From: a virus
Direction: 5' to 3' (one strand)
DNA length: 64,000 bases
Virus record (IMG/VR): IMGVR_UViG_3300035698_014070
Span: 1-64,000 of that record
The position numbers were made by a program, and so were the translations under genes. The notes beneath the pieces are model-generated. The model saw nothing but the letters and a program-made list of their open reading frames with translations, searched no databases and was not told the origin of the DNA. Shown here one piece after another: positions 20,185 to 54,865 of this stretch; the first letter of the stretch is position 1, and every line of letters starts with the position of its first letter.

Positions 20185-20462
20185 AAGAGCTAATAGAACA
20201 ATTAATAAATGTATTAGAATCAAAATATGGAACAGGCGATGTTGTAGTATTTACTTTAAAAAATTTACATAGCTCTGCTTATGCGGGTACTAAAATGAAA
20301 GAGCATGATGGTAAAAAATGTACAATAGTTAAATATTTACATACAGATTATGATTTTAATGTTTCATTCTATGATATAGAATTTGATGATGGATATACTC
20401 TAAGTAACGCAGGTGATTACATGTTAAAGCCTTATGTAAATCCTAGTTTGAGAGATATATAA
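20181..20462 (+). CDS. Leader/SLRDI-tagged small beta-barrel (KOW/SH3-like) protein
   Basis: Starts MKELIEQLINVLE, contains GDVVVF...GKKCTIV...YDIEFDDG, ends NPSLRDI*. Confidence 0.7.
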   Translation: MKELIEQLINVLESKYGTGDVVVFTLKNLHSSAYAGTKMKEHDGKKCTIVKYLHTDYDFNVSFYDIEFDDGYTLSNAGDYMLKPYVNPSLRDI

Positions 20463-20964: not shown

Positions 20965-21342
20965 ATGGATACATTGTTAGAACAAGTAAATAAAGCGTTT
21001 AGAGAAACTAACGAAGCTAGACCAGCTAATGCAGCTGTAGTAAAAGCAGAATTAAAGCGCGTATTTATTGACGCGCAATATACGATACGTGATCTTCATG
21101 ATAGTACTTCTCCAGCATTTGACGCAGTAGATAATTCTATGAATTTTATTATACCAGTAAGAAATAATAGAAAATATACTGAAGAAGTTTTAGCAGAAGT
21201 TGGTTTAGCAGAAGAATATACTGAACTTATCTTTAAAAAACAGGTAATAGCGGATCAGCTAAAAGATACAGAAGATTTAGAAATATTCGCAATTAAATTA
21301 GATCAAGCAATAAAGAATATGAGTTCGCTTAGAGATATATAA
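20965..21342 (+). CDS. Leader/SLRDI-tagged protein
   Basis: Starts MDTLLEQVNKAFRETNE, ends MSSLRDI*. Confidence 0.75.
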   Translation: MDTLLEQVNKAFRETNEARPANAAVVKAELKRVFIDAQYTIRDLHDSTSPAFDAVDNSMNFIIPVRNNRKYTEEVLAEVGLAEEYTELIFKKQVIADQLKDTEDLEIFAIKLDQAIKNMSSLRDI

Positions 21343-22715
21343 TGATATCACAGTTATTAGAATTTATAGATAAAGAATTAAACGAAGGACTGAAGTCTGC
21401 TCGTCGTACGTATTTAGATAGCGATAAGATAGATCAAGCAGAGTTTGATTGGTGTGTATCTGCTGATCCTACATCTCAAAAGAAATACTTAGATTGGATA
21501 TGCAAACAGTACATTACGCATGATGAATTAGATTTAGAAGGTTTTAAAACACTTATTAAAGACTTTTATACATATTCTGAAGATAAGTTAATAGATAATC
21601 CTGATATATATACATATAAAACAATAGAGCAAGTTGCTGATGCTATAACTGCTGCTAAATCTAAAGTAACTAAGAAGAAGAAAAAAGAAAGCGCAATAAA
21701 GGGTGCAGCAGTTTCTTTTGAAACAGATAAATATGTTGGTTATAATATTTATTCTAATGAAGCGTCAAAGAAGTATGGTGCAGGAGCTCCATGGTGTACT
21801 AGATCAGAGGAATCACCATCACATTGGTTTGACTATAGGTATAATGATAGAAAAAGTTTTATTTATATACTTAATAAGATTAAACCAAAAGATAAGTACG
21901 CTCTTGTGTATATAGATAATAAAATACATGAATGTTGGGATATTATTAATGATAATATTGGATTTAGTCAAGCATTTGATAATATGCAAAAAGTAGATGA
22001 TAGTATTACTGATAGTTATATAGAGTTATTTAAAGAAGGTATACCTGAATCAGGTGAATTACGTGATCCTAAAGAAACTATTGATAATGAGTATGATTTT
22101 TTAACATCTAAAGTAAAACGAATAACAGATAAATTGTTTTTACAATTGTCTGGTGTTAAATCAAGATATCTTCTTAAAGATCATGAGATGTACATGATAG
22201 ATTTGAATAAGAATATGTCTTCAGAAAAACTTGCACAGAATATTGTATCACAATTAATTGCTAGTGTTAAAGATGATACGTCTAATACGTTACGCTGGTC
22301 GCGTTGGTTAAATGATGATAGTATAAATAATATACAAATAGATGATTCTCTTATAAATATAATTGAATCATTTGGTGGTATACATAGATTGAAAACATTA
22401 GAAGAAGCAGATAAGTTTCTTGAAAATATAATTAGAAAAGTAACTACAGAAATAAATCATGATGATATACGTAATGTAAAATTGTGGTTAGATTTACTTG
22501 GCGATATTTTGATGAAGGGTTTTGTGGGTGTGTGTTATTACAAGACGAAAGCGCCACATCCAAAAGGAGCAGCGTATTATCCAGTGCGTACATCTGATTA
22601 TACAAAAGCAGATTCATTTGTTGGTGAAATTAAAGATAATCCAAAATGGGCTCAAGAAGAGTTCGAATACTTTTTAGATGCTGTAATGAATAAATACAAA
22701 ATGTTTGAATTATGA
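21342..22715 (+). CDS. Large-phage protein with YGAGAPWCT (PcfJ-like) motif and N-terminal leader
   Basis: MISQLLEFIDKELNE; DPT..KKYLDWI; ASKKYGAGAPWCT. Confidence 0.65.
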   Translation: MISQLLEFIDKELNEGLKSARRTYLDSDKIDQAEFDWCVSADPTSQKKYLDWICKQYITHDELDLEGFKTLIKDFYTYSEDKLIDNPDIYTYKTIEQVADAITAAKSKVTKKKKKESAIKGAAVSFETDKYVGYNIYSNEASKKYGAGAPWCTRSEESPSHWFDYRYNDRKSFIYILNKIKPKDKYALVYIDNKIHECWDIINDNIGFSQAFDNMQKVDDSITDSYIELFKEGIPESGELRDPKETIDNEYDFLTSKVKRITDKLFLQLSGVKSRYLLKDHEMYMIDLNKNMSSEKLAQNIVSQLIASVKDDTSNTLRWSRWLNDDSINNIQIDDSLINIIESFGGIHRLKTLEEADKFLENIIRKVTTEINHDDIRNVKLWLDLLGDILMKGFVGVCYYKTKAPHPKGAAYYPVRTSDYTKADSFVGEIKDNPKWAQEEFEYFLDAVMNKYKMFEL

Positions 22716-22742: not shown

Positions 22743-23030
22743 ATGCTTACTGAAGAAAGCAGAATAGAGTTACTTGATCAGTGGTTTTCGAAGTATGAAC
22801 GGTGGACTGATGAAATAGAACGTTTTTCTAGAAGGTTGATGGATGATTTTTATTGGATGGTGAAAAAACCAGAGCTAGAAATGAATAATGATAAAGAATT
22901 AACTAAGGCAGTAAAAGATATACATGATACAGCACAAAAAATTAATTTAAGCACTAATCCTTTATTTGATATGATTCGTAAAACAGAAAAACAGTTTAAA
23001 CAAAAAGCAGCTTCTTTAAGAGATATATAA
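22743..23030 (+). CDS. SLRDI-tagged helical protein, with leader remnant LIEQLEE in frame upstream
   Basis: Ends AASLRDI*; 22716-22742 reads VLIEQLEEI in the same frame. Confidence 0.7.
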   Translation: MLTEESRIELLDQWFSKYERWTDEIERFSRRLMDDFYWMVKKPELEMNNDKELTKAVKDIHDTAQKINLSTNPLFDMIRKTEKQFKQKAASLRDI

Positions 23031-23407
23031 TGTTAGAATTAATAAACAAACTGTTGGCATATGAACGGCACTTTTCACATAGTCATGGTGACAAGATAGA
23101 TTTAGCTAAGTCATTGTTTCTTGAGAATAAACATGATGAGTGCAGAGATGTGCTTAATACATTTCCTTCACAAGAAGTACTGCTAGGACAGTTGACTGAA
23201 AAACTTAAAGGTAAAAGTGTTTATAAGACGCTTAAGCTTATTGCAGAAGGCAAGTGCGAAAGTAAGGCAGCTGAGATGAAAGGTCTTTTTAGTTTAGGAA
23301 CACATATAGCGATAGAGTGTGAAAAAGAAAATAGTGAGTACGGTTTGTTATTGCCATATGTGTATGAAAAGCTTGGTCAACTTATATTTAATAAAGAAAT
23401 AGATTAA
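23030..23407 (+). CDS. Hypothetical protein
   Basis: TAATG coupling; starts MLELINKLLAYE. Confidence 0.7.
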   Translation: MLELINKLLAYERHFSHSHGDKIDLAKSLFLENKHDECRDVLNTFPSQEVLLGQLTEKLKGKSVYKTLKLIAEGKCESKAAEMKGLFSLGTHIAIECEKENSEYGLLLPYVYEKLGQLIFNKEID

Positions 23408-34860: not shown

Positions 34861-36075
34861 ATGAGTAGTGAACTTTTAAAAAGAATTGTAGAGAATAGAG
34901 ATACCATTTTTGGAGAAATTAATAATACGTTATCTCCAAGGCAAATTAGAGAACATATTCGTAGTATGTATAAAAAGGTTGCAGAAGATGTTGGTTTAAC
35001 TTCAGAAGAAGTAAAGTACTTTGTTCATTATATGTCCAAGAACTTTGCTAATGATTTTACAAAAATATCTGAAGATAAGATATATCATTATGCATCGTTA
35101 TTGCTTGAAGGTAAACTTCCTAATCATGCTGAACCTACTGATAAAAAGGTTCAAGCTATGATAGAAAAAGATGATGATGAAGAGGAAGAAGAAGAAGAAG
35201 AGGTTATTGATGATGAAGTAGAAGATGATGAAAGTGATGAAGAGCTTCCACCTGAAGGTGCTAGTTTACGTGATATAGATAGTGAAGGCGGTGGTGGCGA
35301 TGCTCCTGATATGAGTGATGCAGAACCAAGTGGTGCTGAAGAAGAAGTCGAAATAGATAAAGAGTACTTTGGTAGTACTGGTGATGATGGCTTTTATTAC
35401 ATGGTTGGCTCTGAAGAAGAAGGTGCTGATGATATTAAAATACTGAACCAAGAAGGTGATGAAGTTTATTCTGCAATTGCTAAAGAAATGGATATACAAG
35501 ATATTACTGCAGTGATTGTAGATGCAATTACAGATCTTGAAATGGATGCAGTATCATATGATATTATTGTGAAGTATATTTTCCCGAAACTTCAGGATGA
35601 TGATGAAGAAAAAGAAGATGAAGAAGAAGTTCCTACTGATGAGGAAATGCCTACTGACGAAGAGATGCCTGAAGAAGATGAAGAAATTCCTATGGAATCA
35701 GTGAATAAGGCGAATGAAACTAAAAAAGCTGATAAAGCTAAGAAAGATAAAGCTGATAAAATTAAGAAAGATAAGAAAGACAAAGCTGATAAAGTCAAAA
35801 AAGATAAAAAAGATAAGGCTGAAAAAGCTAAAGCTAAGAAAGCTAAAAAAGATGAGAGTGTAATAGAACACGAAGTTAATGGTGAAAAACATACTGGATG
35901 TATTTTAGAAAATACTTCTGATTTTACTCGTGTTAAAGTAGATAACAAAGAATATAAATTAAACGTACCTTTTGCTGAAGTATATAAAGACGAACACGGT
36001 AACATTACTAACGAGTGCATGAAAGAATTGATTGAAGATTTTGTAGCTCTTAGTGTTACATCTGAAAGTAAGTAA
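34861..36075 (+). CDS. Highly acidic putative scaffold/prohead-core protein
   Basis: E/D tracts and KKDKADK repeats; immediately upstream of the prohead protease; carries an internal SLRDI. Confidence 0.6.
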   Translation: MSSELLKRIVENRDTIFGEINNTLSPRQIREHIRSMYKKVAEDVGLTSEEVKYFVHYMSKNFANDFTKISEDKIYHYASLLLEGKLPNHAEPTDKKVQAMIEKDDDEEEEEEEEVIDDEVEDDESDEELPPEGASLRDIDSEGGGGDAPDMSDAEPSGAEEEVEIDKEYFGSTGDDGFYYMVGSEEEGADDIKILNQEGDEVYSAIAKEMDIQDITAVIVDAITDLEMDAVSYDIIVKYIFPKLQDDDEEKEDEEEVPTDEEMPTDEEMPEEDEEIPMESVNKANETKKADKAKKDKADKIKKDKKDKADKVKKDKKDKAEKAKAKKAKKDESVIEHEVNGEKHTGCILENTSDFTRVKVDNKEYKLNVPFAEVYKDEHGNITNECMKELIEDFVALSVTSESK

Positions 36076-36092
36076 TAATAGGAGATATAAAG

Positions 36093-37694
36093 ATGACTCA
36101 GTTACGCGAAGACATTATAGAAAATTATCAGTTACTTGAAACTGATACAACTAAGCTGCCTGATGGTGTGTTATGTCGAGTGCAATATCCAATATGCAAT
36201 ATTGGTATATTGAATCGCAATAACCGGGTGTATGAGAAGGAATTGTGGGATGGTGTGTTAGCTAATAAAGAAGTAGCGCAAAAGCTAGAGAAGCGTTCTC
36301 TTTATGGTCAGGCTGAACATCCCAAAGAAACACAGAGTAATCTTGAAAAGACTTCTCATGTCATACATAGTATGAATGTAAACGAAGATGGATCTAAAAT
36401 TTCTCAGACTATGGATGTTTTGGATACACCATATGGACGGATTATAGACACACTCTTACGTGCAGGTTGTGGTGTTGGCGTATCTACACGAGCAGAAGGT
36501 GAATTAGAAGAATGCACTGATGAAAGTAATGGAAGTAAATATTTTCGCGTAAAACCTGAGTCATATGATTATGTTACAACCGATTTTACGGCTGATCCTA
36601 GTACTATTGATCCATATCCTGAGTCTGTGCAGCGCGATGTTGTTAGAGAAATAGCAAAAGACTTACATGATAATAGTATAGATAGAGCTTTTGCAATGCC
36701 TTTACTTGAATCAATGCAAGTAGATGAAGCAAAAGAATTGTTGAAAGAAAATAAAGAAAAACCTTTGTTTGAAGACTTTGACAGTGCTTTTGATTGGTTT
36801 AAAGATTATTTTAATACCATGGAAGAAGGAAAAGATAAAGATAAAATTCGTGAAATAATTACTGAAAGCAACTTTGATCCTAATGAAATAATTCCAGCAC
36901 AAGCATCAACATCTATTGAAGATACAGAAAAAGAAATAGAAGAAGTAGAAGATGAAGTTGAGAAAGATATTAAAGATGGTGAAACTCAGAAAGATACGAC
37001 TGAAGAAACTGTTGATGATGCTGAAGAATCTATAAATCCATTACTAGCTGTGAAAGATGCACTTATTAAAGAAGCATCTACTCGTGCTGAATTAGAAAAA
37101 GCAATAGAGATTATTGAAGAACATCAGTGCGATGAAAATAATGTAGCTATTGCAGTTTGTAAGATTAAAAATCTACAACAGAAATTAAAAGAACATAGTA
37201 AATCATATGATGCAAGAACGAAAGCATTACAAACTGCGCTAACTTGTAATGATAAGAAAACAGTTAAAAAAGTAAACGCTTTAAAGATTTCTTTAAAAGA
37301 ATATTTTAATAAATATAAAACACTTGATGAAGTTACAAAAAAGAAATTAGATAAATTAGAACAATGTAATAAAAAAATTGTAACAGAACATAAAGATCGT
37401 GTTATAATGATACAAGAAGAATGTGATAAGAAGATTGTTTCTAGTTACATCACTATGAAATTAGAGCAATCTGGTTTAAAACTGGCAGATAAATCTCGAG
37501 CACTTCTTGAAGATTGTAAAACTGTTGGTGAAGCGGAAACTATGTTGTCTGACTTACGATATACTATGCGTGAAAATGCCCTTCATCATCATTCAGGTGT
37601 ATCTGAAGAAGCGATTATTATTGAATCGACAACTAGTAAATTAGAAGATGAAATCGTAAAGAATGTTAGGTCTTCTTTGGCCGGCATGTCTTGA
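36093..37694 (+). CDS. Prohead protease (T4 gp21-like) fused to a coiled-coil scaffold-like region
   Basis: NRNNRVY, GQAEHP, SHVI, LDTPYG, GVSTRAEG, TDFTADPS. Confidence 0.92.
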   Translation: MTQLREDIIENYQLLETDTTKLPDGVLCRVQYPICNIGILNRNNRVYEKELWDGVLANKEVAQKLEKRSLYGQAEHPKETQSNLEKTSHVIHSMNVNEDGSKISQTMDVLDTPYGRIIDTLLRAGCGVGVSTRAEGELEECTDESNGSKYFRVKPESYDYVTTDFTADPSTIDPYPESVQRDVVREIAKDLHDNSIDRAFAMPLLESMQVDEAKELLKENKEKPLFEDFDSAFDWFKDYFNTMEEGKDKDKIREIITESNFDPNEIIPAQASTSIEDTEKEIEEVEDEVEKDIKDGETQKDTTEETVDDAEESINPLLAVKDALIKEASTRAELEKAIEIIEEHQCDENNVAIAVCKIKNLQQKLKEHSKSYDARTKALQTALTCNDKKTVKKVNALKISLKEYFNKYKTLDEVTKKKLDKLEQCNKKIVTEHKDRVIMIQEECDKKIVSSYITMKLEQSGLKLADKSRALLEDCKTVGEAETMLSDLRYTMRENALHHHSGVSEEAIIIESTTSKLEDEIVKNVRSSLAGMS

Positions 37695-37712
37695 TATTAA
37701 GAGGTGATTATT

Positions 37713-38638
37713 ATGGGTATGGACTTACGCGCTGCTATGAAAGGGCGTCTTGAAGAAGAAACGATGAAGCGTAATCGCTTAATTGAACGATGGAGTTCAA
37801 TGATTACGGCTGTTGATAAATATTTACAAGAGGATCAAAACAGATCTTTAACTTTTTATGACAAACAGAATATTGCACAGTGCTTAGAAAACGCTTTGCT
37901 TGAGAATGGTCTTAAAGCTGGTAATAGAATGTTTGAAGCAACTAATATGGACAATGTTGAATTCATGGCAATTCAACTTCCTGTTATTGCTGCATTGCTG
38001 CCTTCTTTATGTCTTAATAAAGTCTCGACGGTACAGGCTTTGGATAGACGTCAAGGAGCTGTATTTTTCTTAGATTTGCAATATGGTACTGCTAAGGGAA
38101 ATATTGCTGTTGGTGATACGATGATATCTGCAACTACTGGTCATAACGCCACTGCTGCAAATCTTCGTTATGCTGTAACTACAGCTGACAGTGAAAGTCT
38201 TTCTGGTGCTGCTTTAACTTCTAGTGTATTGGCTGGTACGTTAACTTATCAACCAATGTTGGGTACAGTTAGTATTGTAGTTACCGATGGCTCTACGTAT
38301 ACAGATAATGTTAATCCTGGTCAAATTGAGGATTCTAGCGGAAATGTTCTTGGCTGGGTAAAAGTTTCTGGAGCATATGAAATTGATTTTACTGGTGAGT
38401 CTGTGATTCCTGATTCTGGTGGTGAAGTTGCCGCTACGTATTGTTATCAGTATGATCAAGCTGGTGGAGATGATACTCCCACAGTTAATGAAGTCAATAT
38501 TGATCTTCGCAGTGAAATGATTACCGCACAAGATTTCCCGCTGAAAGCTATTTATTCTATGGGCGCATCAATAGATTTACAAAAAGCCCATGGTCTGGTT
38601 TTAGAGGACGAGCTTGTTAAGTTCCTTGGTGGCGAGAT
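37713..38638 (+). CDS. Major capsid protein (T4 gp23-like), exon 1
   Basis: GAGGTG RBS; LPVI...VQAL...GAVFFL; DLQKAHGLVLEDELVKFLGGEI; ends at the predicted 5' splice site. Confidence 0.9.
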
Positions 38639-39746
38639 TGATTTTGGTCTCGCGTCGTTAGCAATAGCGGCATAGTTAAAACTACTCAATTGCTGGGACA
38701 CCCTAACAAGTAGTGTTGAGGGCAATCAGCAGCTGCTAGTATGAAAAGTAAAATGATTAGTGAAAATATAAAATATTGTGAATGTGGTTGTGGAACGCCG
38801 ATTAAGCCAGCAAATAGATTTGTTAGTGGTCATAATCGACGTGGAACTAAAAATACTCCTGAGCATAATTTAGCGATAAGTCAGTATAATAAACTCCATA
38901 ATCCAGCTACAAATAAAGAAACAGCAGTAAAGATTTCAAAAGCATTGACTGGAAAAAAACAATCATTAGAAACTAGATTAAAAAGATCTAAGTCTTTAAC
39001 AAATAATCCTAAAGTTATTGCTTCTAGAATAGGTAATCAAAATAGAAAAGGAACAACTACAAGTAGCAAAGCTCGTAAGAATATGAGTAATAGTGCTAAA
39101 AATAAAGCTTTTTCTGATTCACACAAAGAAGCAATAAGTAATGGATTGATTAAGTATTTTTCAGTTATAGAGAATAGAATAAAAAGAGTAAAAGAAATTA
39201 GTAATAGAATTCAACTTAAAGGTTATCAGTATAAAAATGGATACTTAAAAATGTCTAATTTTAACCGCAAGTTGTTTTACCGTTCTTCTTATGAAAAGCT
39301 AGCTCTTATTATTCTTGATACTAAGTATAATGAAATAAAAGATATTTTCACAGAATGTATTCATATTCCATATAAAAACGCAGATGGTTCAACGCGTGTT
39401 TACACTCCTGATATTTTTGTTAAAATGAATAAAGGGAAAGATATACTTATTGAAGTAAAACCAAATTGCTTTGTTAATAATTCTGATGTTGTTAGAAAAA
39501 CAGAAGCAGGAATTTTTTGGGCAAAGCAAAACAACGTTACGTTTTGTATATGGACTGAAGATATTCTTCATAATAGTAGTTCAACGACTACGTGTTTACA
39601 AGAGATTGTAAATGCTACGGTAGTCTACCCACGTGGTAGAAGGTATAGTCTGAACTCAATGGAAACATTGAGAAGGGAGCAGAAATGACTCTCTCGCTTA
39701 TTAATATTTTAGCGACTTTGTTAATAAGTTTACAAGTAACAGATTG
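38639..39746 (+). mobile_element. Group I intron (1108 nt) in the major capsid gene
   Basis: P1: exon GCGAGAU pairs with GUCUCGC (38647-53) with a U.G at the splice site. P4 TGCTG/CAGCA, R GTTCAACGACTA (39579-90), S AAGGTATAGTC (39640-50), GNRA-capped P2 and P9, terminal G39746. Splicing restores GGEIKFEIDR in frame. Confidence 0.92.
38741..39688 (+). CDS. Intron-encoded homing endonuclease (NUMOD3-like repeats plus TnsA-like PD-(D/E)XK domain)
   Basis: CECGCG...FVSGHN; KISKALTGKKQS; YRSSYEK...YTPDIFV...LIEVKP. Confidence 0.85.
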   Translation: MKSKMISENIKYCECGCGTPIKPANRFVSGHNRRGTKNTPEHNLAISQYNKLHNPATNKETAVKISKALTGKKQSLETRLKRSKSLTNNPKVIASRIGNQNRKGTTTSSKARKNMSNSAKNKAFSDSHKEAISNGLIKYFSVIENRIKRVKEISNRIQLKGYQYKNGYLKMSNFNRKLFYRSSYEKLALIILDTKYNEIKDIFTECIHIPYKNADGSTRVYTPDIFVKMNKGKDILIEVKPNCFVNNSDVVRKTEAGIFWAKQNNVTFCIWTEDILHNSSSTTTCLQEIVNATVVYPRGRRYSLNSMETLRREQK

Positions 39747-41960: not shown

Positions 41961-42048
41961 ATGTCTATAGGTACATACAAAAGAACAGTTGAACATAAGA
42001 AAAGAATTTGATATATTAAGAGATAAAAGTTCTTTAAGAGATATTTAA
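41961..42048 (+). pseudogene. Gene remnant: NUMOD3-like start plus an SLRDI-stop end in another frame
   Basis: MSIGTYKRTVEHKKRI* (41961-42011) and KEFDILRDKSSLRDI* (42001-42048). Confidence 0.45.
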
Positions 42049-42683
42049 TGATACAATTTATTAATATTATTATTGAAGCTACTCATGGTGAGATACAGCA
42101 AAAGCAGCGTACTATAACAAAGTTGTTTCCACAGTTTCCTGATAGGTTACAAAAAGTAGCAGATAATGGTGGTGTTAAATTAGAAGAAATGGAGCCAGAT
42201 AAGTGGCACTTTTATGTAGCAAGTGGTACAGAAAAAGGAACAGAGTATCATAATTATGTGAAGTTTGTAAACCTGAAACCATTGCTTCGTAAATATATTG
42301 CGAGTGACGCTGTATGGAATAAAGCAGGTAGTGCAGTTGATTATCAAAAGTTAGCACGTTTGTTATTAGATAATATGGATTTAAGATTATTATGCACGTG
42401 TCCCGCGTTTCAATATTGGGGATCTGCTTATACATTAAGTCGTTCTAAATATGATGCAAAGTATGGTAGAAGAGAGCGTAGACCTCCAAATATACGAAAT
42501 CCTAAAGAACATGGTTCTATGTGTAAACATATGCACCAAGTTATGCGCGTGTTACCATTTTATAATAGTACATTCGCAAAATATTTAAAAGAGTATCATA
42601 AAACTTATATTGAACAACTTACTAAGAAAGCTTTAAAGCTAAAAGAAAAGCCAGAAGAAGATAAAGAGAAAAAAGAAAAGTAA
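42048..42683 (+). CDS. SWIM-type zinc-finger protein
   Basis: CTCPAFQYWG...NP....MCKH. Confidence 0.75.
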   Translation: MIQFINIIIEATHGEIQQKQRTITKLFPQFPDRLQKVADNGGVKLEEMEPDKWHFYVASGTEKGTEYHNYVKFVNLKPLLRKYIASDAVWNKAGSAVDYQKLARLLLDNMDLRLLCTCPAFQYWGSAYTLSRSKYDAKYGRRERRPPNIRNPKEHGSMCKHMHQVMRVLPFYNSTFAKYLKEYHKTYIEQLTKKALKLKEKPEEDKEKKEK

Positions 42684-42703: not shown

Positions 42704-44077
42704 ATGATAAATATACATGAACTATTACAACGAGTATTTGAAGCAGATATTGTACAACCAGAGCGTCCTCAACCAATAGCTCCACCTGCTCCTAATAGAA
42801 CTACACCACCTGAGCGTAGAAAAAGTCCTATTAAACCTATACCTGGTAAACATCCAAAACCTAAAGGTAATAAAGATGTAGAGCTGTTTTTAAAGAAACG
42901 CGGTATTGTAAATGAGATGGCTTTTGATCCAGGTGCGTTTAAAGATATTACTGATCCAAGCAAACGAGCGTGGATAGAAACCGGTACAGAAGATCTTAGT
43001 GAGATATTACCAGATGCAACAGATTCGCAACAAAGTTATCTTGAGATGGTTACATCAAAATCATATATAGAAATGTTAAATCGTGTTGAACGTTATACTG
43101 GCTTAAATGTGGATGATATTGATGTTCCTCAATTAATTGGTTTATTGTTTCAATCAATGAATACTGCTGCAGAAATAGAAAAAAACAATATTAATGCTTT
43201 AGAAAATATTGCGTTAATGAGCGTATTAAGTTTAGACGAATTTTCAATGGTGAAAGATTTATATGATAACGATGAAGTAAAATTTGATATAGAATTAATG
43301 AGTAGAGATAAACCGCTTGATATTGACTTAATGCAGCAGCATGACGAAGAACAAAATCCAGATGATAATGGATTGACAGACAATGAAGAAACAAATCTAG
43401 AATTGGCAGATGAGCTTATTAGTTCTGATAACACTAAAATGAAAAGACGTTTAGCAGATCTTTTAATACAAGGAAATGCTGTAAGTAAATTGTATCTATT
43501 TAATGTAGTTCGTGATAAATTGAATGCTATAGACGAAAGACTTCCTGCTTTATATGGAATAGCTGCTACAATGACGCAGCTTGGTTATTGGGTAACTCCA
43601 TTTGGTATTGAAGAAATGTCAGCATCAGCAGAAGAAATGACAGGTGGAGCAGAAGAAGTAATTCCTAGTGGAGATATATACGTAATTAAAGCACGTGGAC
43701 AAATATTTCCAATGTTAGTGCATGAAATTGTTAAAGGAATATATGAATACATTTCTTTAAACAATGATATTGGTACAGCCAGTGGTGGGTTACGTCAAGA
43801 AACCGAAGATATTATTGTTGGACCAGAGATTGCGAAGACATTAAAATCTTATGTTCCACTTGATCAGCAAGAGTTATTGCCATTAGTTCATAAATTATTT
43901 TTAGAACTATCACAATCTGATATTAAGAATGTACTCGCAAAAAATTCACAAGGTAAAAGTACTATGGATGAATTGCTTAAACAGGCTGAAGAGCAGTGGG
44001 ATGAATATAATAAAGAAGAAAATGAGTATGAAGATGAAGGTGAAGAACCCGAAGAGTTTGGAGAACAAGGTGAATAA
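42704..44077 (+). CDS. Hypothetical protein with N-terminal leader and Pro-rich linker
   Basis: MINIHELLQRVFE; KRRLADLLIQG; FPMLVHEIVKGIYE. Confidence 0.7.
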   Translation: MINIHELLQRVFEADIVQPERPQPIAPPAPNRTTPPERRKSPIKPIPGKHPKPKGNKDVELFLKKRGIVNEMAFDPGAFKDITDPSKRAWIETGTEDLSEILPDATDSQQSYLEMVTSKSYIEMLNRVERYTGLNVDDIDVPQLIGLLFQSMNTAAEIEKNNINALENIALMSVLSLDEFSMVKDLYDNDEVKFDIELMSRDKPLDIDLMQQHDEEQNPDDNGLTDNEETNLELADELISSDNTKMKRRLADLLIQGNAVSKLYLFNVVRDKLNAIDERLPALYGIAATMTQLGYWVTPFGIEEMSASAEEMTGGAEEVIPSGDIYVIKARGQIFPMLVHEIVKGIYEYISLNNDIGTASGGLRQETEDIIVGPEIAKTLKSYVPLDQQELLPLVHKLFLELSQSDIKNVLAKNSQGKSTMDELLKQAEEQWDEYNKEENEYEDEGEEPEEFGEQGE

Positions 44078-45373
44078 TGAGTGTATATAGTATTGCAAAT
44101 AATGTTGTTGAAAATATGAAAGTAAAAGAAGCAACTAGTATGAGTAACATTGCATATGTAGCAGGCGGATTTGGAACAGTTAAAACAGCTTTAAAAATAT
44201 TATCACAAATGAAAGATGATTGGGGAGTTGAAGTATTAGAAGGAGAAGAAGAAACATATAATGTAAAGATAGAAGATTCTTTAATAATATCAGTACCTAA
44301 AGATTTGTGGGAAGAATTTGCTATAGAAATGTTTGGTAATAAAATCAATGTAAAAAATATGAATTTAGCAAAATATTTAGAAGAATCTATAGTAGATTGT
44401 AATAAAGATTTACTTCGTAAAGTAAAAGCATCTGTAAAAAAATTGTATAAACAAAAACCGTATTCTATTATGGAGAGAAACATAAAAATATGGAGAGCTT
44501 TATTTGGAGCAACTCGATTTATTACAACTCCAAAAACATGTATACCTGTAGAATCAAAAATTAAATCTTCTAAGTATCTTTGCAAAACTATTGAAAGTGC
44601 TTATGGTAAAGACAGAGGTATGCTTGAAATGCTTTTATCCGCACTGTCTAAAGGGAAAAGTTTAATAGATTTTGATGTGTTTGAAAATTATGATAAAATA
44701 ACTGGTACTGTTATTTATATTCGTAAAGATAATACTGTTTTTACATATGAATCTTCTATAGATTTAAATGGAAAGTTAACTGAAACAATTAGAGTAACTG
44801 ATAAAGACGTGCTTGAATCATTAAAAGAATCTAGATTTGGAAGACGAAATAAAAACATTGTTTCACCAAAGGGAGATTTTTTTACAAATAAAGAATTTAA
44901 AAACTTTAAAGCAATTATACAGGATGTAAATGATGAAACAAATAACAGAAGCTAAAGACGTCACTATTTACAAGAACTTGCTTCGTCAACTTGGAGATTA
45001 CGCTACATCAAATCAAATGACTGGTGTATCTAAGTTGTTTCAGCAAGTTATAGATGGTGGAATAAAGGTATTACCAAAAGATGATAGAGCTTTATCAATT
45101 ATTGATAGAACAATTATATCTGCAGCAAATCCAGCTTCTTCAGTGCAGAAGTTTTTAAATGTACGTTTTTCAGATTTGTCTATTGATTTACGTCCTATTG
45201 TTAAAAATGGCCGTAGAAAAGAAGTTGCTTTTTGGTGTCGTAATGGTGAAGTATTTGATAAGGTTTGTGATCTTATTAGCTTTAGTGGTAAGGGCAGATC
45301 AGGGTACTGGTGTAATATTCGCGGTGACAAAATGGAACTATTGGATATCAGTTTTGAAGAAGTGGTGGTATAA
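44077..45373 (+). other. Two hypothetical ORFs
   Basis: 44077..44955 and 44930..45373. Confidence 0.65.
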
Positions 45374-46916: not shown

Positions 46917-47846
46917 GTGGATTATGAATTATATAAAAAATTGTTTTACACAGTAAATGAGCAGACATCTGATTCTAATTATGAACCTTCTCGTGATTTT
47001 TTAGATGGAGTAGATAAAATATTTTTGTCTTTTTCAGAAGAAGAGTGCGAATGGATAGAACAAAACCGCTACTTTTTTTCTGCTAGTAAAATGATTGCTG
47101 GCAGTAAAAAAAATGAAGATGGAACATATGATTCTAATGTAGATTTAGATTTTAGCAATAAAAAATTTAAAGATGGGAAGTTACCGTTTAAATTAAATAA
47201 AGTAAATGGCAGTTTTAAAGTTTTTGATTGTGGATTAACAACATTAGAAGGTTGTCCTAAAATAGTTACTAAATTGTTTAGTTGTTTTAAAAATAATCTT
47301 ACATCATTAAAAGGAGGTCCTGAAGAAGTTGGAATGCACTATTCTTGCATGGCAAATAAACTTAAATCTTTAGAGTTTCTTCCTAAAAAACTTAGGAGTT
47401 TAGATTGTTCAATTAATAAATTACGTTCATTAGATAATTTTGTTCCTAATGAATTATCTTCTTTTAGTTGTTTTAAAAATAATCTTACATCATTAAAAGG
47501 TAGCCCAACAAAAATAATTAGTTATTTTGATTGCAGTAGCAATAAACTAACTTCATTAGAAGATGGACCTAGATACGTAGGTGGGGGTTATATTTGTGCA
47601 AGAAATAAATTAATATCTTTAAAAGGAGCTCCTAAATCTATTACTGTAAGTGAAGGGTTTAGTAATTTTAATTGTTCGCATAATGAGTTAACATCATTAG
47701 AATTTGCTCCACAATACGTATCTGGAACTTTTGATTGTAGTAAAAATAAACTAACTTCTTATGAATTTATACCTAAAAAAGTAAAAAAAGTTATTAGTAA
47801 AGGTAATCCAATAACATACGAACAATGGATAAAACAAAATGAGTAA
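46917..47846 (+). CDS. Leucine-rich-repeat protein (LTSLEGAP type)
   Basis: About nine F.C..N.LTSL.G.P repeats. Confidence 0.85.
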   Translation: MDYELYKKLFYTVNEQTSDSNYEPSRDFLDGVDKIFLSFSEEECEWIEQNRYFFSASKMIAGSKKNEDGTYDSNVDLDFSNKKFKDGKLPFKLNKVNGSFKVFDCGLTTLEGCPKIVTKLFSCFKNNLTSLKGGPEEVGMHYSCMANKLKSLEFLPKKLRSLDCSINKLRSLDNFVPNELSSFSCFKNNLTSLKGSPTKIISYFDCSSNKLTSLEDGPRYVGGGYICARNKLISLKGAPKSITVSEGFSNFNCSHNELTSLEFAPQYVSGTFDCSKNKLTSYEFIPKKVKKVISKGNPITYEQWIKQNE

Positions 47847-48216: not shown

Positions 48217-50667
48217 ATGTTTAATGAATTATACGAAAATTTAGCTTCTGTTTTAGAGAATAATGGGCATGAGTACTCTAATGTTCAGATAACAATAACA
48301 GGTGAACTTTCTAAAAAAATGCTTGATTATGGTAAAAGTATACCTGATGAAGAAATTTATACTGATGAGAATGATCCATCGTATGGTAGAGAAAAAGATA
48401 CACATGTTACTGTGCGGTATGGATTAACAACAGACAATCCATCTGAATTACAAAAAGCTTTTACAGATTTTGGCATAATAAAATTAAAAATGAATAATAT
48501 ATCTGTTTTTGAGACAGATGATTATGCTATAATTAAAATAGATATTGATAGCAATGATTTACATAAAGCGAATGAATTAGTTGGTGAAACAGAAGATGTA
48601 CCTGGTGAAACATATAAAGAGTACAAACCGCATGCTACAATTGCTTATGTAAAGAAAGGTGCTGGAAAGAAATACATTGATAATAAAACATTTAATGGTG
48701 AAGAAATAACTGTTAATACAATTGAATTGAATGATAGGAACGATACTAAACACACGATAAATTTATCTCGAGATATGTCTGCAGAATGTAAGTTGCAGAA
48801 GATCCATAAGGCGACTGTGAGTGAAAATGCAGACATTAACGAATTAGATTGGAAAAAGACAGCTAAGGTTGCGGCTGCTACAACAGCAGTAGGATTGGTT
48901 GGATTGCTAGGCCAGCAAAAAGCATATAGAAATTATGATAAAGGACTTATAGCGAACCAATCTGCTTCTGCTGTTACTAAATCTGCTGAGCAACCTGAAG
49001 TTCAGCAGAAACTGGCAAAGGAAACTAACGTAAATGAAATAGATATAGATAAGATTGCACAAATAGAGTCATCTAATAATCCTACCGCTGTTAATAAAAG
49101 AACAGGTACACGCGGGTTATGCCAGTTTATGGAGCCAACTTGGAATGATGTTATTAAAAAGATGAAAGTTGATTGGACATGGGAAGATGCTTTTGATCCT
49201 AATAAAAACAGAACAGCAGCTGAGTTTTATATAAACAAAGACATACCACGTATGTTACAATATTATAAGATAGAGGATACAAATGAAACAAGACTTGCGT
49301 CTTATAACTGGGGTATTGGTAATGTGAAAAAAGCAGTTCGTAAGTATGGAAAAGATTGGATTAATCACATTCCTACAGAAACTCGTAATTATATTCAGAA
49401 GTATAATGCATTACAAGAAGTAATTCAGCATGATGGTGGAAACTTTCAGCACTTTTTTGTTGATGCAAAAGGTTACGCAATACAAGTAGCAAGTCATGTA
49501 GAGTATGTAAAGAAAAAACTTGGTACTAATTATGCTGATGAAAAAGCAGTTAATAAGTATATGAAAAAGAATAAACTGATACGTTTAGGGCAGACTGAAG
49601 ATGTTTTGTTTTTCGTATCAGTTGCCAGTAAAGTAACAGATGTTCAAATAAAAGTATTAAGAAAGCTTCTTCGTTCTGGTACAACATTGTATTACGATAT
49701 ATTTAAAGGAACTAAACGTATTAATTCTGGTTCAGGATTTAAAGAGTTTTTAGAAGATCTTGAATATTATAAAATGTATAAGCCTAAAACAAACGAATCT
49801 ACTATTGATTTTCCTAGAGAAGATTTACCTACGGAGATATGGACAAAAGAGAATGGTGAATATGTTTTAAGAGATGATGTGTATAATAAGATCGTGAAAA
49901 CACTGGCACAATATCCTAACGTTGATTTAAATAAATTAGCTACAACGATGCACATAACTGGTTCAATCGGGACTAATCAGCATGATGATGATTGTGATTT
50001 GGATGTACATATATTACCATTAGAAGGTAAAGCAGATAATCATTTACAAAAAGATGTATTTAAGTGGTTTAATGAAAACAGAGACAAAATTGATGGATAC
50101 GTTGGTGAACATCCTATTGAAGTATATATTCAGTTAGATCCACAGCAAGAATTGTTTGCAGATGCGGCGTATGATGTTGGTAATAAGAGATGGTTAAAGG
50201 GTCCTAAGAAAGCTGCTTCGTCTTATAATCCGTATGAAGAGTTTAAAGAATTGTTAGTAGATGTAGTAAGTGATGCAGAAGAAGCTGATAAGGTATTGGG
50301 TGAACTTAAGCGAGATACAATAGATTATACAACTATTGTTCGCGCGATGCGCTACCTAAGTACAGGTGATAAAGAACACTTACACGATATGCTATTATCA
50401 AAGTCGGTTGAGATTGATGCAGATATACGTGCGTTGATTAAACAAAAAGGAGAGTGGACAAACGCTCGCCATATGTCATCGCAAGCCACACCCGAAGATG
50501 CCTTAAAAGATGTAGACATTGCTAAAAGATGGAAAGATGAAAATGCAAAATTTAAATTTATGAATCGCTACAATTACGTCAAGCTTATAAAAGATCTTGA
50601 AGATATGATTAAAGATGAAGAGCTTTCTGATAGAGAAATAAATCTTATACAAAGAACTTTAACATGA
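48217..50667 (+). CDS. Multidomain protein: 2H phosphoesterase (Acb1/gp57B-like) + lytic transglycosylase + unknown domain + nucleotidyltransferase
   Basis: HVTVRYG and HATIAY; IESSNNP...RGLCQFM...ASYNWGIG...ETRNY; ITGSIG......DLDVHI. Confidence 0.85.
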   Translation: MFNELYENLASVLENNGHEYSNVQITITGELSKKMLDYGKSIPDEEIYTDENDPSYGREKDTHVTVRYGLTTDNPSELQKAFTDFGIIKLKMNNISVFETDDYAIIKIDIDSNDLHKANELVGETEDVPGETYKEYKPHATIAYVKKGAGKKYIDNKTFNGEEITVNTIELNDRNDTKHTINLSRDMSAECKLQKIHKATVSENADINELDWKKTAKVAAATTAVGLVGLLGQQKAYRNYDKGLIANQSASAVTKSAEQPEVQQKLAKETNVNEIDIDKIAQIESSNNPTAVNKRTGTRGLCQFMEPTWNDVIKKMKVDWTWEDAFDPNKNRTAAEFYINKDIPRMLQYYKIEDTNETRLASYNWGIGNVKKAVRKYGKDWINHIPTETRNYIQKYNALQEVIQHDGGNFQHFFVDAKGYAIQVASHVEYVKKKLGTNYADEKAVNKYMKKNKLIRLGQTEDVLFFVSVASKVTDVQIKVLRKLLRSGTTLYYDIFKGTKRINSGSGFKEFLEDLEYYKMYKPKTNESTIDFPREDLPTEIWTKENGEYVLRDDVYNKIVKTLAQYPNVDLNKLATTMHITGSIGTNQHDDDCDLDVHILPLEGKADNHLQKDVFKWFNENRDKIDGYVGEHPIEVYIQLDPQQELFADAAYDVGNKRWLKGPKKAASSYNPYEEFKELLVDVVSDAEEADKVLGELKRDTIDYTTIVRAMRYLSTGDKEHLHDMLLSKSVEIDADIRALIKQKGEWTNARHMSSQATPEDALKDVDIAKRWKDENAKFKFMNRYNYVKLIKDLEDMIKDEELSDREINLIQRTLT

Positions 50668-50744
50668 AAAAATTAATTGAACAACTTGAAAAATGTGTTA
50701 CTGAAATAAATCCTATAAGTGAAAAGGTGAAAATTTATGGATAA
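50664..50744 (+). CDS. 26-aa leader-only micro-ORF or junction scar
   Basis: MKKLIEQLEKCVTEINPISEKVKIYG*. Confidence 0.45.
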   Translation: MKKLIEQLEKCVTEINPISEKVKIYG

Positions 50745-51387
50745 GTTAGTTGAATATCTTATTAAAGAAGTAGAGAAGCAAGCTTCAGATGAAGAGTTTT
50801 TAGATAAAGTTGTTGATGGAACATACACATTAAACTCTGATGGCAGTTATGATGTAGTTGGTAATGTAAAAGTGTTTAAAACGCAATCAACTTTTATTTT
50901 TGTAAAATTTAGAAAAGTAAGTGGAAATTTTATTTGTAGTTATAATGACTTAACAACATTAGAAGGCGCACCTAAAGAAGTAGGTGGAAATTTTACTTGT
51001 AACAACAATATCTTAACAACATTAGAAGGCGCACCTAAAGAAGTAGGTGGAAATTTTACTTGTAGTTATAATGACTTAACAACATTAGAAGGCGCACCTA
51101 AAGAAGTAGGTGGAAATTTTACTTGTAGTTATAATGACTTAACAACATTAGAAGGCGCACCTAAAGAAGTAGGTGGAAATTTTACTTGTAAAAACAATTA
51201 CTTAACAACATTAGAAGGCGCACCTAAAGAAGTAGGTGGAAATTTTACTTGTAAAAACAATGACTTAACAACATTAGAAGGATTAAATTATGTTAAAGGT
51301 AAAATTATTTATAATAATAATCCTATGAATTGTGAAGAAGAAATAAAAAAGCACAAACAAAGAAAAGCATCACTTAGAGATATATAA
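50737..51387 (+). CDS. Leader/SLRDI-tagged leucine-rich-repeat protein
   Basis: Starts MDKLVEYLIKE; 21-aa repeats C..N.LTTLEGAPKEVGGNFT; ends KASLRDI*. Confidence 0.88.
   Translation: MDKLVEYLIKEVEKQASDEEFLDKVVDGTYTLNSDGSYDVVGNVKVFKTQSTFIFVKFRKVSGNFICSYNDLTTLEGAPKEVGGNFTCNNNILTTLEGAPKEVGGNFTCSYNDLTTLEGAPKEVGGNFTCSYNDLTTLEGAPKEVGGNFTCKNNYLTTLEGAPKEVGGNFTCKNNDLTTLEGLNYVKGKIIYNNNPMNCEEEIKKHKQRKASLRDI
50921..51281 (+). repeat. 63-bp coding tandem repeat (5 full units plus a partial)
   Basis: Near-identical units that differ almost only in the codons following the Cys. Confidence 0.95.
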
Positions 51388-53203: not shown

Positions 53204-54865
53204 ATGGGCTTTTATATGTCACCCGGTGTTTATAGTAAAGAGAAAGATATTTCTAATATCATTCCTACCATTTCGTCTACTACAGCTGCTTTAGTTGGAT
53301 GTTCTGTAAAGGGTAGTTTAGATGTTACGAGTGTTACTAATTCTCAGCAGTTTATAGAAGAGTATGGTAAACCTGTACCAGGAAATTATTTCCACTATAC
53401 TGCATTAGCATTTTTAGAAAACGGAAATAGTTTATACTGTAAACGGGTAATTAATGCAGCACTATACGGTGGAATGGATGTGTATGAAGCAGATGCTGGA
53501 ACAAATATAGCATTTACTTCTGGTGAAACAACTGCTGAGTTTACCTATGCATCTTCAGAAGATGAAGTAATATTGCAAATATTTGGTAAAGATCCAGGTG
53601 TGTGGGATAATCGTATTAGTATTAATATTGGAAATGTTCAAGAAACTATAGATACTACATATAAAGATAGTGATGAAGAAGATATCGCACTTCCAACTGT
53701 TGAACAGTATACATTTAGTATTGAAGTATGGTATGAGAACGATGAAGGAACAGATGAATTAGTTGAATCATGGAAAGTTAGTCGTAAAACAAAAACAGAT
53801 GGTAATGGACGACAGCTATATCTTGAAGATGTAATAAATGGTTATAGTAAATATATTCTTGTATATGATAATACAGATATTGCTGATACAAGTTTACCTG
53901 AAAGTAATGGTACATTAGGTGTTGTAACAGACGCAGTTACTTTAGGTGGTGGAAGTGATGGTGGTACAGTTACAGCGGCTGCTAAAGTTTTAGGATGGAC
54001 AGAATTTGAAAATCCAGATGATGTAGATATTCGAATTATGTTAAACGGCGGTGAAACAGATGTATCTGTTCAAACTGAAATGAAGCGCGTTGCAGAAGCT
54101 CGTAAAGATTGTTTTGCTATTTTAGATATACCGTATGCACAACTTTCTAGTATTACGAATATGCTTACATGGAGAATGAGTACGCAAAATTTTGATTCTA
54201 GTTACACAGCTTTATATGCACCGTGGGTAAAAGCTTATGATGCGTATAATGATGTGCTTCTCGAATTGCCGCCTTCTGGATATGTTGGTTCGCAGTATGT
54301 TTATAATGATTTTAATGCTGAAGTGTGGTACGCCCCTGCTGGTCATACTCGAGGTAAATTAAATGTATTAAGTTTGACAGATGTATTTACACAAGGTGAG
54401 CGTGATCAATTATATCCAAGACAAATTAATCCACTACAAACATTCCGTGGTCGTGGTAATGTTATATGGGGACAAAAAACACAGCAGTTTAAAGCATCCG
54501 CACTTAGTAGTGTCAATGTTCGTAGGCTTTTGATTATAATAGAAAAAGCAGTAGCTATTGCAATGCAGGACTTTGTGTTTGAACCAAATAATGATTTGAC
54601 GCGTTTTAAAGTTGAAGCAGTTATTACTGAATATATGGATAATCTTTCAGCAAAAGGAGCGTTTCAAACTGAAGCTGGTGATGATGGATATGCAGTAATA
54701 TGTAATACGACAAACAATACGCCTGCGATTATTGATTTAAATGAACTACATGTAGATATATTTGTAAAGCCTTCACGCGCCGCAGAGTATATTCAGTTAC
54801 AAACTATTATCACACCGACTGGAGCATCATTTAATGAGTTAATAAGTCGTGGAGTTTTGTTATAA
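53204..54865 (+). CDS. Tail sheath protein (gp18-like)
   Basis: SPGVYSKE, RKDCFAILD, WYAPAG..RG, WGQKT, VNVRRL, FEPN, NNTP. Confidence 0.97.
   Translation: MGFYMSPGVYSKEKDISNIIPTISSTTAALVGCSVKGSLDVTSVTNSQQFIEEYGKPVPGNYFHYTALAFLENGNSLYCKRVINAALYGGMDVYEADAGTNIAFTSGETTAEFTYASSEDEVILQIFGKDPGVWDNRISINIGNVQETIDTTYKDSDEEDIALPTVEQYTFSIEVWYENDEGTDELVESWKVSRKTKTDGNGRQLYLEDVINGYSKYILVYDNTDIADTSLPESNGTLGVVTDAVTLGGGSDGGTVTAAAKVLGWTEFENPDDVDIRIMLNGGETDVSVQTEMKRVAEARKDCFAILDIPYAQLSSITNMLTWRMSTQNFDSSYTALYAPWVKAYDAYNDVLLELPPSGYVGSQYVYNDFNAEVWYAPAGHTRGKLNVLSLTDVFTQGERDQLYPRQINPLQTFRGRGNVIWGQKTQQFKASALSSVNVRRLLIIIEKAVAIAMQDFVFEPNNDLTRFKVEAVITEYMDNLSAKGAFQTEAGDDGYAVICNTTNNTPAIIDLNELHVDIFVKPSRAAEYIQLQTIITPTGASFNELISRGVLL

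Follow-up and report, generated by a model that had tools for sequence, protein, structure and literature searches.

A predicted polyvalent virion protein joining 2H phosphoesterase, lytic transglycosylase and nucleotidyltransferase domains in an uncultured myovirus

The window analyzed here, i.e., the first 64 kb (positions 1 to 64,000) of the 74,228-bp IMG/VR virus record IMGVR_UViG_3300035698_014070, which is 44% complete according to CheckV, belongs to a large uncultured myovirus and contains an open reading frame (ORF; 48217..50667, + strand, ATG start) that encodes a protein of 816 residues. In this protein a short leader is followed by a 2H phosphoesterase domain, a weakly hydrophobic segment, an SLT lytic transglycosylase domain, an alpha/beta domain and a Pol-beta-superfamily nucleotidyltransferase (NTase) with a helical bundle; all domains that had been proposed from an initial reading of the nucleotide sequence (the original prediction) are present, and in the order proposed. 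On balance, it is probable that the gene specifies a polyvalent virion protein, whose leader would direct it into the prohead and which would be cut at its domain borders by the S77-family prohead protease of the phage, injected into the host cell, and active there on RNA ends or nucleotide immune signals. The analysis establishes the architecture of the protein, its catalytic motifs, a pattern of conserved sites at its module borders, leaders and synteny, as well as that the protease is encoded and the fusion genuine; packaging, cleavage, delivery and substrates are inferred.

Domain architecture of the fusion protein

The ORF lies in a block of structural genes on one strand (Table 1). The window sequence was found in salt-lake metagenomes, namely in four runs from four studies, and all domain junctions are spanned without indels by independent contigs from these runs (X1-X4), the linker that joins the 2H and SLT domains being covered by contigs of three of them. 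Misassembly is thereby excluded as the source of the fusion. The possibility that the 2H/SLT junction hides a stop or a frameshift was likewise rejected, given that the DNA of this junction maintains a clean reading frame and is bridged by contigs.

The N-terminal domain was modelled by AlphaFold2 (AF2) with predicted local distance difference test (pLDDT) values above 90 over residues 20-185, and both Foldseek and VIA-align identified these residues as a 2H fold; structure prediction, which had been suggested as a check on this domain, was thus affirmative. The two HxT motifs, H63-V-T65 and H139-A-T141, are invariant among 12 aligned relatives. The domain had been described as Acb1/gp57B-like, and while the 2H assignment and the two motifs hold, the proposed likeness to Acb1 is not supported: its closest structural neighbours are LigT/ThpR rather than Acb1, and its match to the Acb1 model PF23474 (18.4 bits, E 0.0019) is below the 27-bit gathering score. 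The protein also falls below the 27-bit gathering score of PF13563 (19.8 bits), a model that is passed by relatives of the same 2H subfamily (P0004, 42.1 bits; P0005, 36.8 bits). When the 2H alignment served as a profile against the PDB, Acb1 was reached at no better than E 0.44, a search that was contaminated by the long tail of P0005. Identity to the LigT/ThpR RNA 2',3'-cyclic phosphodiesterases and to phage Acb1 is just 10-17%, with scores below the Pfam cut-offs of both families, and unlike these enzymes the window 2H is one domain of a virion-module protein.

Elsewhere, the 2H subfamily of the window protein is found fused C-terminally to portal proteins of three families, PF04860, PF06074 and PF05136 (P0182, P0186 and P0190). 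It also occurs N-terminal to a Mu-type protease/scaffold (PF10123) and in a protein with the polyvalent-protein domain LPD23. The portal, protease/scaffold and LPD23 fusions are independent signs of the subfamily as capsid cargo, and on the basis of these domain combinations it is a putative mobile cargo module. Furthermore, the 1,969-residue protein P0189 combines PolyA_pol (PF01743) and its RNA-binding domain (PF12627) with the same 2H subfamily, so that a 2H domain and a predicted RNA 3'-end NTase have been brought together independently, which is a precedent for the pairing in the window. Of note, the 2H-portal fusion P0186 also possesses a PI3/PI4-kinase-like domain.

Stand-alone 2H homologs terminate at the position of L183/S184 of the window protein, and homologs without a 2H domain open with leaders of 10-14 residues, whose terminal hydrophobic-x-Glu tripeptide (h-x-E) aligns with INE209. 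The linker between these positions (residues 186-209) retains a Met (M187) and a leader-like stretch at the would-be start of a separate SLT gene, and it is probably a relic of the N-terminal leader of such a formerly separate gene. The Ala/Gly/Thr-rich segment that follows is weakly hydrophobic (mean Kyte-Doolittle value of 1.17 over 19 residues) and is kept in six homologs. Thereafter, PF01464 identifies the SLT domain (residues 264-380, E 8e-15, 54.9 bits versus a cut-off of 21.3), in which E284-S285 (across seven homologs), a G, a Q and the YN.G motif are invariant in the SLT alignment (A4). PHROG matches of this part carry the names lytic tail protein, lytic tail fiber protein, tape measure and endolysin, the last being the top match, and a match at E 1.8e-9 was obtained to phrog_342, a family of internal virion proteins with an endolysin domain. 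No peptidase family was detected in the polyprotein by a Pfam search at E values up to 1.

The alpha/beta domain between SLT and NTase was modelled with a pLDDT of ~90 over residues 402-520, and returned neither a Pfam match nor a significant Foldseek match in the PDB. It is gained or lost variably among homologs, being present in P0026, P0033, P0034, P0040 and P0086, duplicated in P0036 and missing in P0029. A lead to PD-(D/E)xK-type restriction enzymes was rejected, as ESM Atlas scores did not exceed 0.84, recognition was low, and no conserved D..(D/E)xK is seen in the alignment.

A large phage nucleotidyltransferase family

An exhaustive HMMER search with residues 527-816 returned 477 clusters (at 50% identity), of which 87 matched at E <=1e-30. 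Many members of this family are stand-alone proteins of ~300 residues, and many others are fused to unrelated N-terminal parts. The window domain has the canonical motif, T-G582-S583-x10-D594-L-D596-V, with the G, the S and both D residues found in 57 of 57 aligned members, in agreement with the assignment to the Pol-beta superfamily originally proposed from GS...DLD. A third carboxylate, E635, located in an I-E-V stretch on the predicted next strand, is present in 47 of the 57.

The window NTase domain itself passes no Pfam model. Among the 57 members, however, matches were obtained to PF22600 (MTPAP-like palm; 27 members, best E 2e-7), PF01909 (25 members, best E 1e-6) and PF18765 (nine members). 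For example, P0003, which is 48% identical to the window NTase, passes PF01909 with 22.8 bits against a cut-off of 21, and the ESM Atlas neighbours of the domain are viral clusters with PF01909. PDB matches of the NTase profile are weak (E 0.02-0.5) and concern minimal NTases at the GS..DxD stretch. A Foldseek search of the PDB with a 415-residue model gave no match at E <=1e-3, with ANT(6), ANT(4') and MntA at E 0.2-0.25; both VIA runs on this model returned generic helical bundles only, at model residues 274-415, and a structure search of BFVD returned uncharacterized phage proteins only.

With the known Pol-beta NTases that act on RNA 3' ends or proteins, i.e., the PF22600 palm of poly(A) polymerases and terminal uridylyltransferases, the MNT-type enzymes of PF01909 and kanamycin NTase, the window protein shares the hG[GS]-x10-D-h-D-h pattern (h, hydrophobic) and the third carboxylate. 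As in ANT(4') and poly(A) polymerases, a helical domain follows the NTase core. It differs from these enzymes in failing all Pfam models, in PDB profile E values of just 0.02-0.5, and in belonging to phrog_36119, which is annotated as of unknown function. The divergent member P0124 matched, by tblastn, only two unannotated records of one 735-kb uncultured phage.

Conserved border sites, leaders and a T4-type prohead protease

The domain edges of the window protein had been reported to coincide with Glu sites, and VLE14, VSE203/INE209, LQE401 and TNE527 are indeed located at these edges. The coincidence is unremarkable in a single sequence, and it is the relatives that lend it support. The start of the NTase domain is defined by ES.ID[FY]P, and nearly all family matches begin at the first residue of the query. 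The residue before the domain-opening Ser (P1) is Glu in 124 of 142 members, P3 is I, L, V, M or F in 111 of 139, and P2 and P4 are variable. Taken jointly, h-x-E directly precedes the Ser in 106 of 139 members, whereas its background frequency within these proteins is 2.5% per residue. The pattern persists in fused forms with unrelated upstream sequence, and it corresponds to the type of site that is recognized by the T4 gp21 prohead protease. In the window protein, E527 is part of a coil linker, where pLDDT drops to the minimum of the AF2 model (68). Similarly, each of seven SLT homologs possesses an h-x-E located 5-10 residues past the terminal KY of the SLT domain, in a linker that is otherwise unconserved.

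Of note, the divergent NTase-family genes of loci L036 and L037 (655 and 578 residues) keep h-x-E before the Ser, as YIGE/S and MVQE/S; in these loci the sheath gene is on the opposite strand, ~6.8 kb upstream.

The second element is the leader. Residues 1-14 of the window protein form a low-confidence helix (AF2 pLDDT 42-51) outside the 2H fold, and leaders of the same type, M-x-E-L-[LFY]..h-x-E, open NTase-family proteins, SLT-NTase homologs and several neighbouring ORFs. Stand-alone NTase proteins carry leaders of 2-29 residues, with M-x-E-L-L..h-x-E as the recurrent type, and a leader of this type is present in 27 of 50 fused NTase forms versus ~28% expected. Of the 19 ORFs in the 34.8-53.2 kb region of the window, 11 show h-x-E at residues 9-18, as opposed to 21 of 77 elsewhere (Fisher p = 0.013). 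In length and ending, the leaders resemble the capsid-targeting propeptides of phage T4, which have 10-20 residues and are cleaved after Glu (PMC5694885). At least nine further ORFs carry such leaders, e.g., MSSELLKRIVE, MINIHELLQRVFE and MKELIEQLINVLE, and these leader-bearing ORFs may represent a set of capsid-targeted proteins.

The third element is the protease. The gene at 36093-37694, 10 kb upstream of the polyprotein gene, encodes an S77-family protease that matches phrog_207, head maturation protease (E 2.5e-27), passes PF03420 with 28.8 bits versus a cut-off of 27, and is 32% identical to cyanophage gp21 over residues 1-179; it is presumed to be the processing enzyme. An S77 protease was found in nine of ten related records carrying the NTase gene, the tenth being a 10%-complete fragment. 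The claim that the polyprotein is cut by the prohead protease is hence supported as far as a T4-type S77 enzyme in the genome and a conserved site pattern are concerned. As a separate observation, the likeness of the 533-residue protease to gp21 is confined to approximately residues 1-180, and the S77 match in related records sits within open frames of 536-1549 residues. The prohead protease thus seems to continue into a long fused C-terminal region, which is perhaps a scaffold.

Synteny and origin of the fusion

Related IMG/VR loci were retrieved with an alignment of eight NTase sequences; a search with the single C-terminal domain returned no loci. The order major capsid protein .. NTase - two small genes - sheath - tube is seen in at least 35 related contigs, where the NTase gene follows the capsid and neck genes and lies 1-4.8 kb upstream of the sheath gene, as compared to 2.5 kb in the window. 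The NTase gene is thus a conserved structural-module gene across a clade of uncultured myoviruses. A complete relative has a genome of 126.6 kb with terminal repeats.

The modules of the polyprotein are distributed differently among these phages. The SLT domain is encoded by a separate ORF just upstream of the NTase gene in L005, L008, L013 and L024, while SLT and NTase are fused in L010, P0002, P0035, P0036, P0042 and P0045. No 2H domain was found in the related NTase loci, and its in-frame addition is for this reason considered specific to the window phage. On comparative grounds, the polyprotein is best described as a putative lineage-specific in-frame fusion of modules that related phages encode separately.

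The polyprotein gene is flanked by paralogous repeat proteins (46917-47846 and 50737-51387; phrog_7816 and phrog_21719, with a weak LRR_4 match), and homologs of these with internal repeats occupy varying positions in related loci, e.g., L005, L008, L009, L014, L034 and L039.

Proposed mode of action and alternative explanations

It is proposed that the 14-residue leader directs the precursor into the prohead core, in the manner of the T4 capsid-targeting sequence for internal proteins, where the S77 protease would cut after E14, E203 and/or E209, E401 and E527 to yield fragments of ~22, 22, 14.6 and 33.5 kDa. These fragments would exit the capsid with the DNA at infection. The fragment with anchor and SLT domain would open the peptidoglycan locally, like a membrane-tethered transglycosylase, and the 2H and NTase domains would be active in the cytoplasm as early as the first seconds of infection. 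Their likeliest substrates would be RNA 3' ends, with healing of cyclic phosphates and addition of nucleotides countering RNase-type defences or remodelling host RNA; nucleotide immune signals would be the alternative substrates. Action on RNA 3' ends is favoured because the 2H domain is LigT-like, the NTase is poly(A)-polymerase-like, and a 2H domain is independently fused to PolyA_pol. The CCA-adding enzyme of Escherichia coli also joins an NTase with 2',3'-cyclic phosphodiesterase activity. In jumbo-phage genomics, furthermore, 2H enzymes and template-independent NTases have been tied to the repair of RNase damage (PMC7824862). A PADLOC search gave no match.

The original prediction of a head-packaged polyprotein that is cut and delivers anti-defence enzymes is in part backed by leaders, sites and protease, whereas packaging, cleavage and the anti-defence role continue to be inference. 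A wider proposal is that, across the clade (genomes of ~125 kb or more, with S77 protease), the catalytically intact NTase is a conserved, processed and injected head-internal protein, which together with the LigT-like 2H domain of the window protein would constitute a pre-packaged kit for RNA 3'-end repair or remodelling; this is regarded as doubtful. If it held true, such a kit would act before phage gene expression and could, e.g., repair tRNA ends that defence RNases have cleaved, or add tails to host RNA for its decay. Virions would then deliver a hitherto unknown class of enzyme activity.

Several observations weigh against the proposed head-borne, processed and injected protein. The polyprotein contains 65 Glu residues (8%) and 16 h-x-E tripeptides, most of them inside folded domains, and the chance of some Glu occurring within +/-6 residues of all four borders is ~0.19; in the window sequence alone, border Glu residues are thus not above chance and the motif predicts little by itself. 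At the best-supported site, the P3 residue of the window protein is Thr (T-N-E527), which is atypical in not being hydrophobic, and the E-S that opens the NTase domain could be conserved for structural reasons instead of for cleavage. Leaders are only modestly enriched in the window (p = 0.013), given a background of 27% in a proteome rich in Glu and Leu. The position of the gene between head and tail genes cannot separate head from tail proteins, and most PHROG families matched by the SLT part are named after tail proteins or endolysins. Structure searches gave no confirmation of the NTase fold, their lists being dominated by the helical bundle, and tblastn with the NTase domain returned no match at E <=0.01 in 50,697 phage records. 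RNA ligases (PF09414, PF09511) were not found in the 74-kb, 44%-complete record, although the PF09511 control matched nowhere and this negative therefore says little. Lastly, the window phage has no cultured relative, its sheath reaching at most 33% identity to the sheaths of cultured phages.

The foremost alternative is that the 2H domain is an Acb1-type enzyme, pre-made at injection, which destroys cyclic oligonucleotide signals (CBASS, type III CRISPR or Thoeris-like), with the NTase as a functionally unlinked anti-defence enzyme. Degradation of cyclic nucleotide signals is also one of two proposals of Iyer et al. (2017), and is a serious alternative for the 2H domain; the explanation as a whole is held to be possible at a low probability.

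A second alternative is a tail-associated virion lysin, comparable to wall-degrading proteins of the tape-measure, tail-tip or T7 gp16 type, which would reside in the lumen of the tail, the baseplate or the neck and in which the h-x-E tripeptides would be structural or coincidental. It would accord with the PHROG matches to lytic tail, lytic tail fiber, tape measure and endolysin proteins, and with the location of the gene close upstream of the sheath gene in the window and its relatives. The PHROG names, however, track the SLT domain and not its location, phrog_342 (an internal virion protein) being matched too. The leader and h-x-E pattern co-occurs with S77 proteases, which are active inside proheads, and it is not obvious what a pair of enzymes with substrates in the cytoplasm would do in a tail. 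A tail lysin is therefore deemed unlikely.

It is also conceivable that the protein, packaged or expressed, is an uncleaved single multi-domain machine in which the Glu motifs are unused. The P3 Thr before the NTase is atypical, and AF2 shows compact, well-folded domains with short linkers. Set against this, the predicted sites of action differ, namely the periplasm for SLT and the cytoplasm for 2H and NTase, the same modules are separate genes in relatives, and h-x-E is strongly conserved at module borders, which makes an uncleaved machine quite unlikely.

The hallmark of signal-anchor-release (SAR) endolysins is a weakly hydrophobic Gly/Ala-rich segment just upstream of the muralytic domain. 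That the segment and SLT domain form an endolysin of this type for late lysis, with an accidental 2H/NTase fusion and a non-virion protein without delivery role, is very unlikely, for although the composition of residues 215-233, upstream of the SLT domain, fits this hallmark, the segment lies ~12 residues from the N-terminus in homologs and the top PHROG match is labelled endolysin, the segment of the window protein is internal, behind a 210-residue cytoplasmic enzyme, and could serve as an N-terminal SAR signal only after a cut at E209, while SLT and NTase are found fused in several lineages independently (P0002, P0035, P0036, P0042, P0045 and L010) and the position of the gene in the structural module is conserved.

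Relationship to known delivery systems and significance

The proposed head-delivered protein most closely resembles the phage polyvalent proteins described by Iyer, Burroughs, Anand, de Souza and Aravind (Iyer et al., 2017, J Bacteriol), for which packaging, and delivery together with the DNA, have been predicted (PMC5512222). Their phage-type components include 2H domains, fused to MuF or portal proteins, and peptidoglycan-cleaving domains, with units freed by proteolysis (PMC5512222). The window protein likewise has unrelated effector domains (2H, SLT and NTase) in one ORF, located between the head genes and the sheath gene. Polyvalent proteins often, though not always, embed a zincin-like metallopeptidase (MPTase) or other peptidase, whereas none was detected in the window protein, processing of which would fall to a separate S77 prohead protease acting at inter-domain h-x-E sites. 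Moreover, the Pol-beta NTases reported in 2017 were found only in conjugative elements and belong to a different, minimal family (PMC5512222), while the NTase described here is part of a phage-type protein and of a larger phage family with a helical C-terminal bundle. The combination of a possible signal-destroying and a nucleotide-adding enzyme in one chain had been called unusual, which is overstated: packaged polyvalent proteins that include 2H and lysozyme domains have been on record since 2017 (PMC5512222), and P0189 pairs 2H with a PolyA_pol-type NTase. The principle is known from polyvalent proteins and T4 internal proteins; the combination of 2H, SLT and NTase is new.

The T4 internal proteins are a diverse anti-defence cargo that shares only a cleaved targeting sequence of 10-20 residues (PMC5694885; PMC3012670). 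With T4 IPI-III and Alt, the window protein has in common the short leader ending in h-x-E and the presence of a gp21-family protease in the genome, and in these T4 proteins too the leader is the shared element, the cargo being diverse and its role at injection time presumed (PMC3012670, PMC5694885). In contrast, the T4 internal proteins are single and small, where the window protein chains four modules with internal sites and has no sequence similarity to them. T7 gp16-type internal virion proteins and virion lysins similarly carry an SLT domain in the particle, which opens peptidoglycan at entry. The window protein is different in that it belongs to a myovirus with a T4-type protease, that its SLT domain stands between two nucleotide-acting enzymes and after a weak hydrophobic segment, and that no similarity extends outside the SLT domain.

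Proteins that are coinjected with DNA act before phage gene expression and so decide the outcome against constitutive host defences. Few enzymatic phage cargos are known, i.e., T4 Alt and IPI, P1 Dar, and the virion RNA polymerases of N4 and phiKZ. A large uncharacterized NTase family appears to be a further head-delivered cargo, marked by a leader and a conserved protease site, and leader plus site would make it possible to recognize head-delivered effectors by a simple rule from the sequences of uncultured phages with T4-type proteases. The locus also illustrates how cargo may evolve, through fusion and fission of neighbouring structural-module genes and capture of a mobile, portal-riding 2H domain. 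Should the 2H and NTase domains repair or modify RNA ends, they would represent a counter-defence route distinct from the T4 Pnkp/Rnl1 pathway.

Features of the locus and minor observations

The features of the polyprotein gene and its surroundings are listed in Table 1.

Table 1. Coordinates of the polyprotein domains, candidate sites, neighbouring genes and junction-bridging contigs in the window
Feature	Position	Strand	Remarks
N-terminal leader of 14 residues, MFNELYENLASVLE	48217..48258	+	ends V-L-E14; putative capsid-targeting propeptide
2H phosphoesterase domain, LigT/ThpR-like	48274..48771	+	residues 20-185
HxT motifs	48403-48411; 48631-48639	+	H63-V-T65; H139-A-T141
Linker	48772..48843	+	residues 186-209; M187; candidate sites VSE203, INE209
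Ala/Gly/Thr-rich segment	48859..48915	+	residues 215-233; putative membrane anchor or SAR-like
SLT lytic transglycosylase	49006..49410	+	residues 264-398; catalytic E284 in I-E-S motif
L-Q-E401	49411..49419	+	candidate protease site after SLT
Middle alpha/beta domain	49420..49776	+	residues 402-520; no known family
T-N-E527	49789..49797	+	candidate protease site before NTase (E527/S528)
Pol-beta-superfamily NTase core	49798..50226	+	residues 528-670; G582-S583, D594-x-D596, H598, E635
NTase C-terminal helical bundle	50227..50664	+	residues 671-816; R751, K780 invariant; Y787 near-invariant
S77/T4 gp21-type prohead protease	36093-37694	+	533 residues
Major capsid protein	37704-38675		same-strand structural block
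Head-closure protein	38741-39688		same-strand structural block; several unknown ORFs next
Tail sheath	53204-54865		further tail genes downstream
ORFs with leader ending h-x-E at residues 10-15	34861-36075, 42048-42683, 42704-44077, 44077-44955, 46917-47846, 50737-51387		
Leader-type ORFs outside structural block, 20-23 kb	20181-20462, 21342-22715, 23030-23407		
Contigs bridging 2H/SLT junction	X1 48217-48906; X2 48697-48870; X3 48712-48900		no indel
Contigs bridging SLT/middle/NTase junctions	X1 49241-50334; X4 49502-50029		no indel

Two minor observations concern the metagenomic contigs. In run X4, a single low-depth contig carries A>C at 49781, which changes K522 to T, five residues before E527/S528. 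In addition, the 33-nucleotide stretch 49539-49571 also matches, with three differences, another longer and otherwise unrelated contig in all four runs; this contig is deeper in three runs (27.8, 16.3 and 6.98), with a value of 3.4 in X2, and the shared segment is possibly a chance match.

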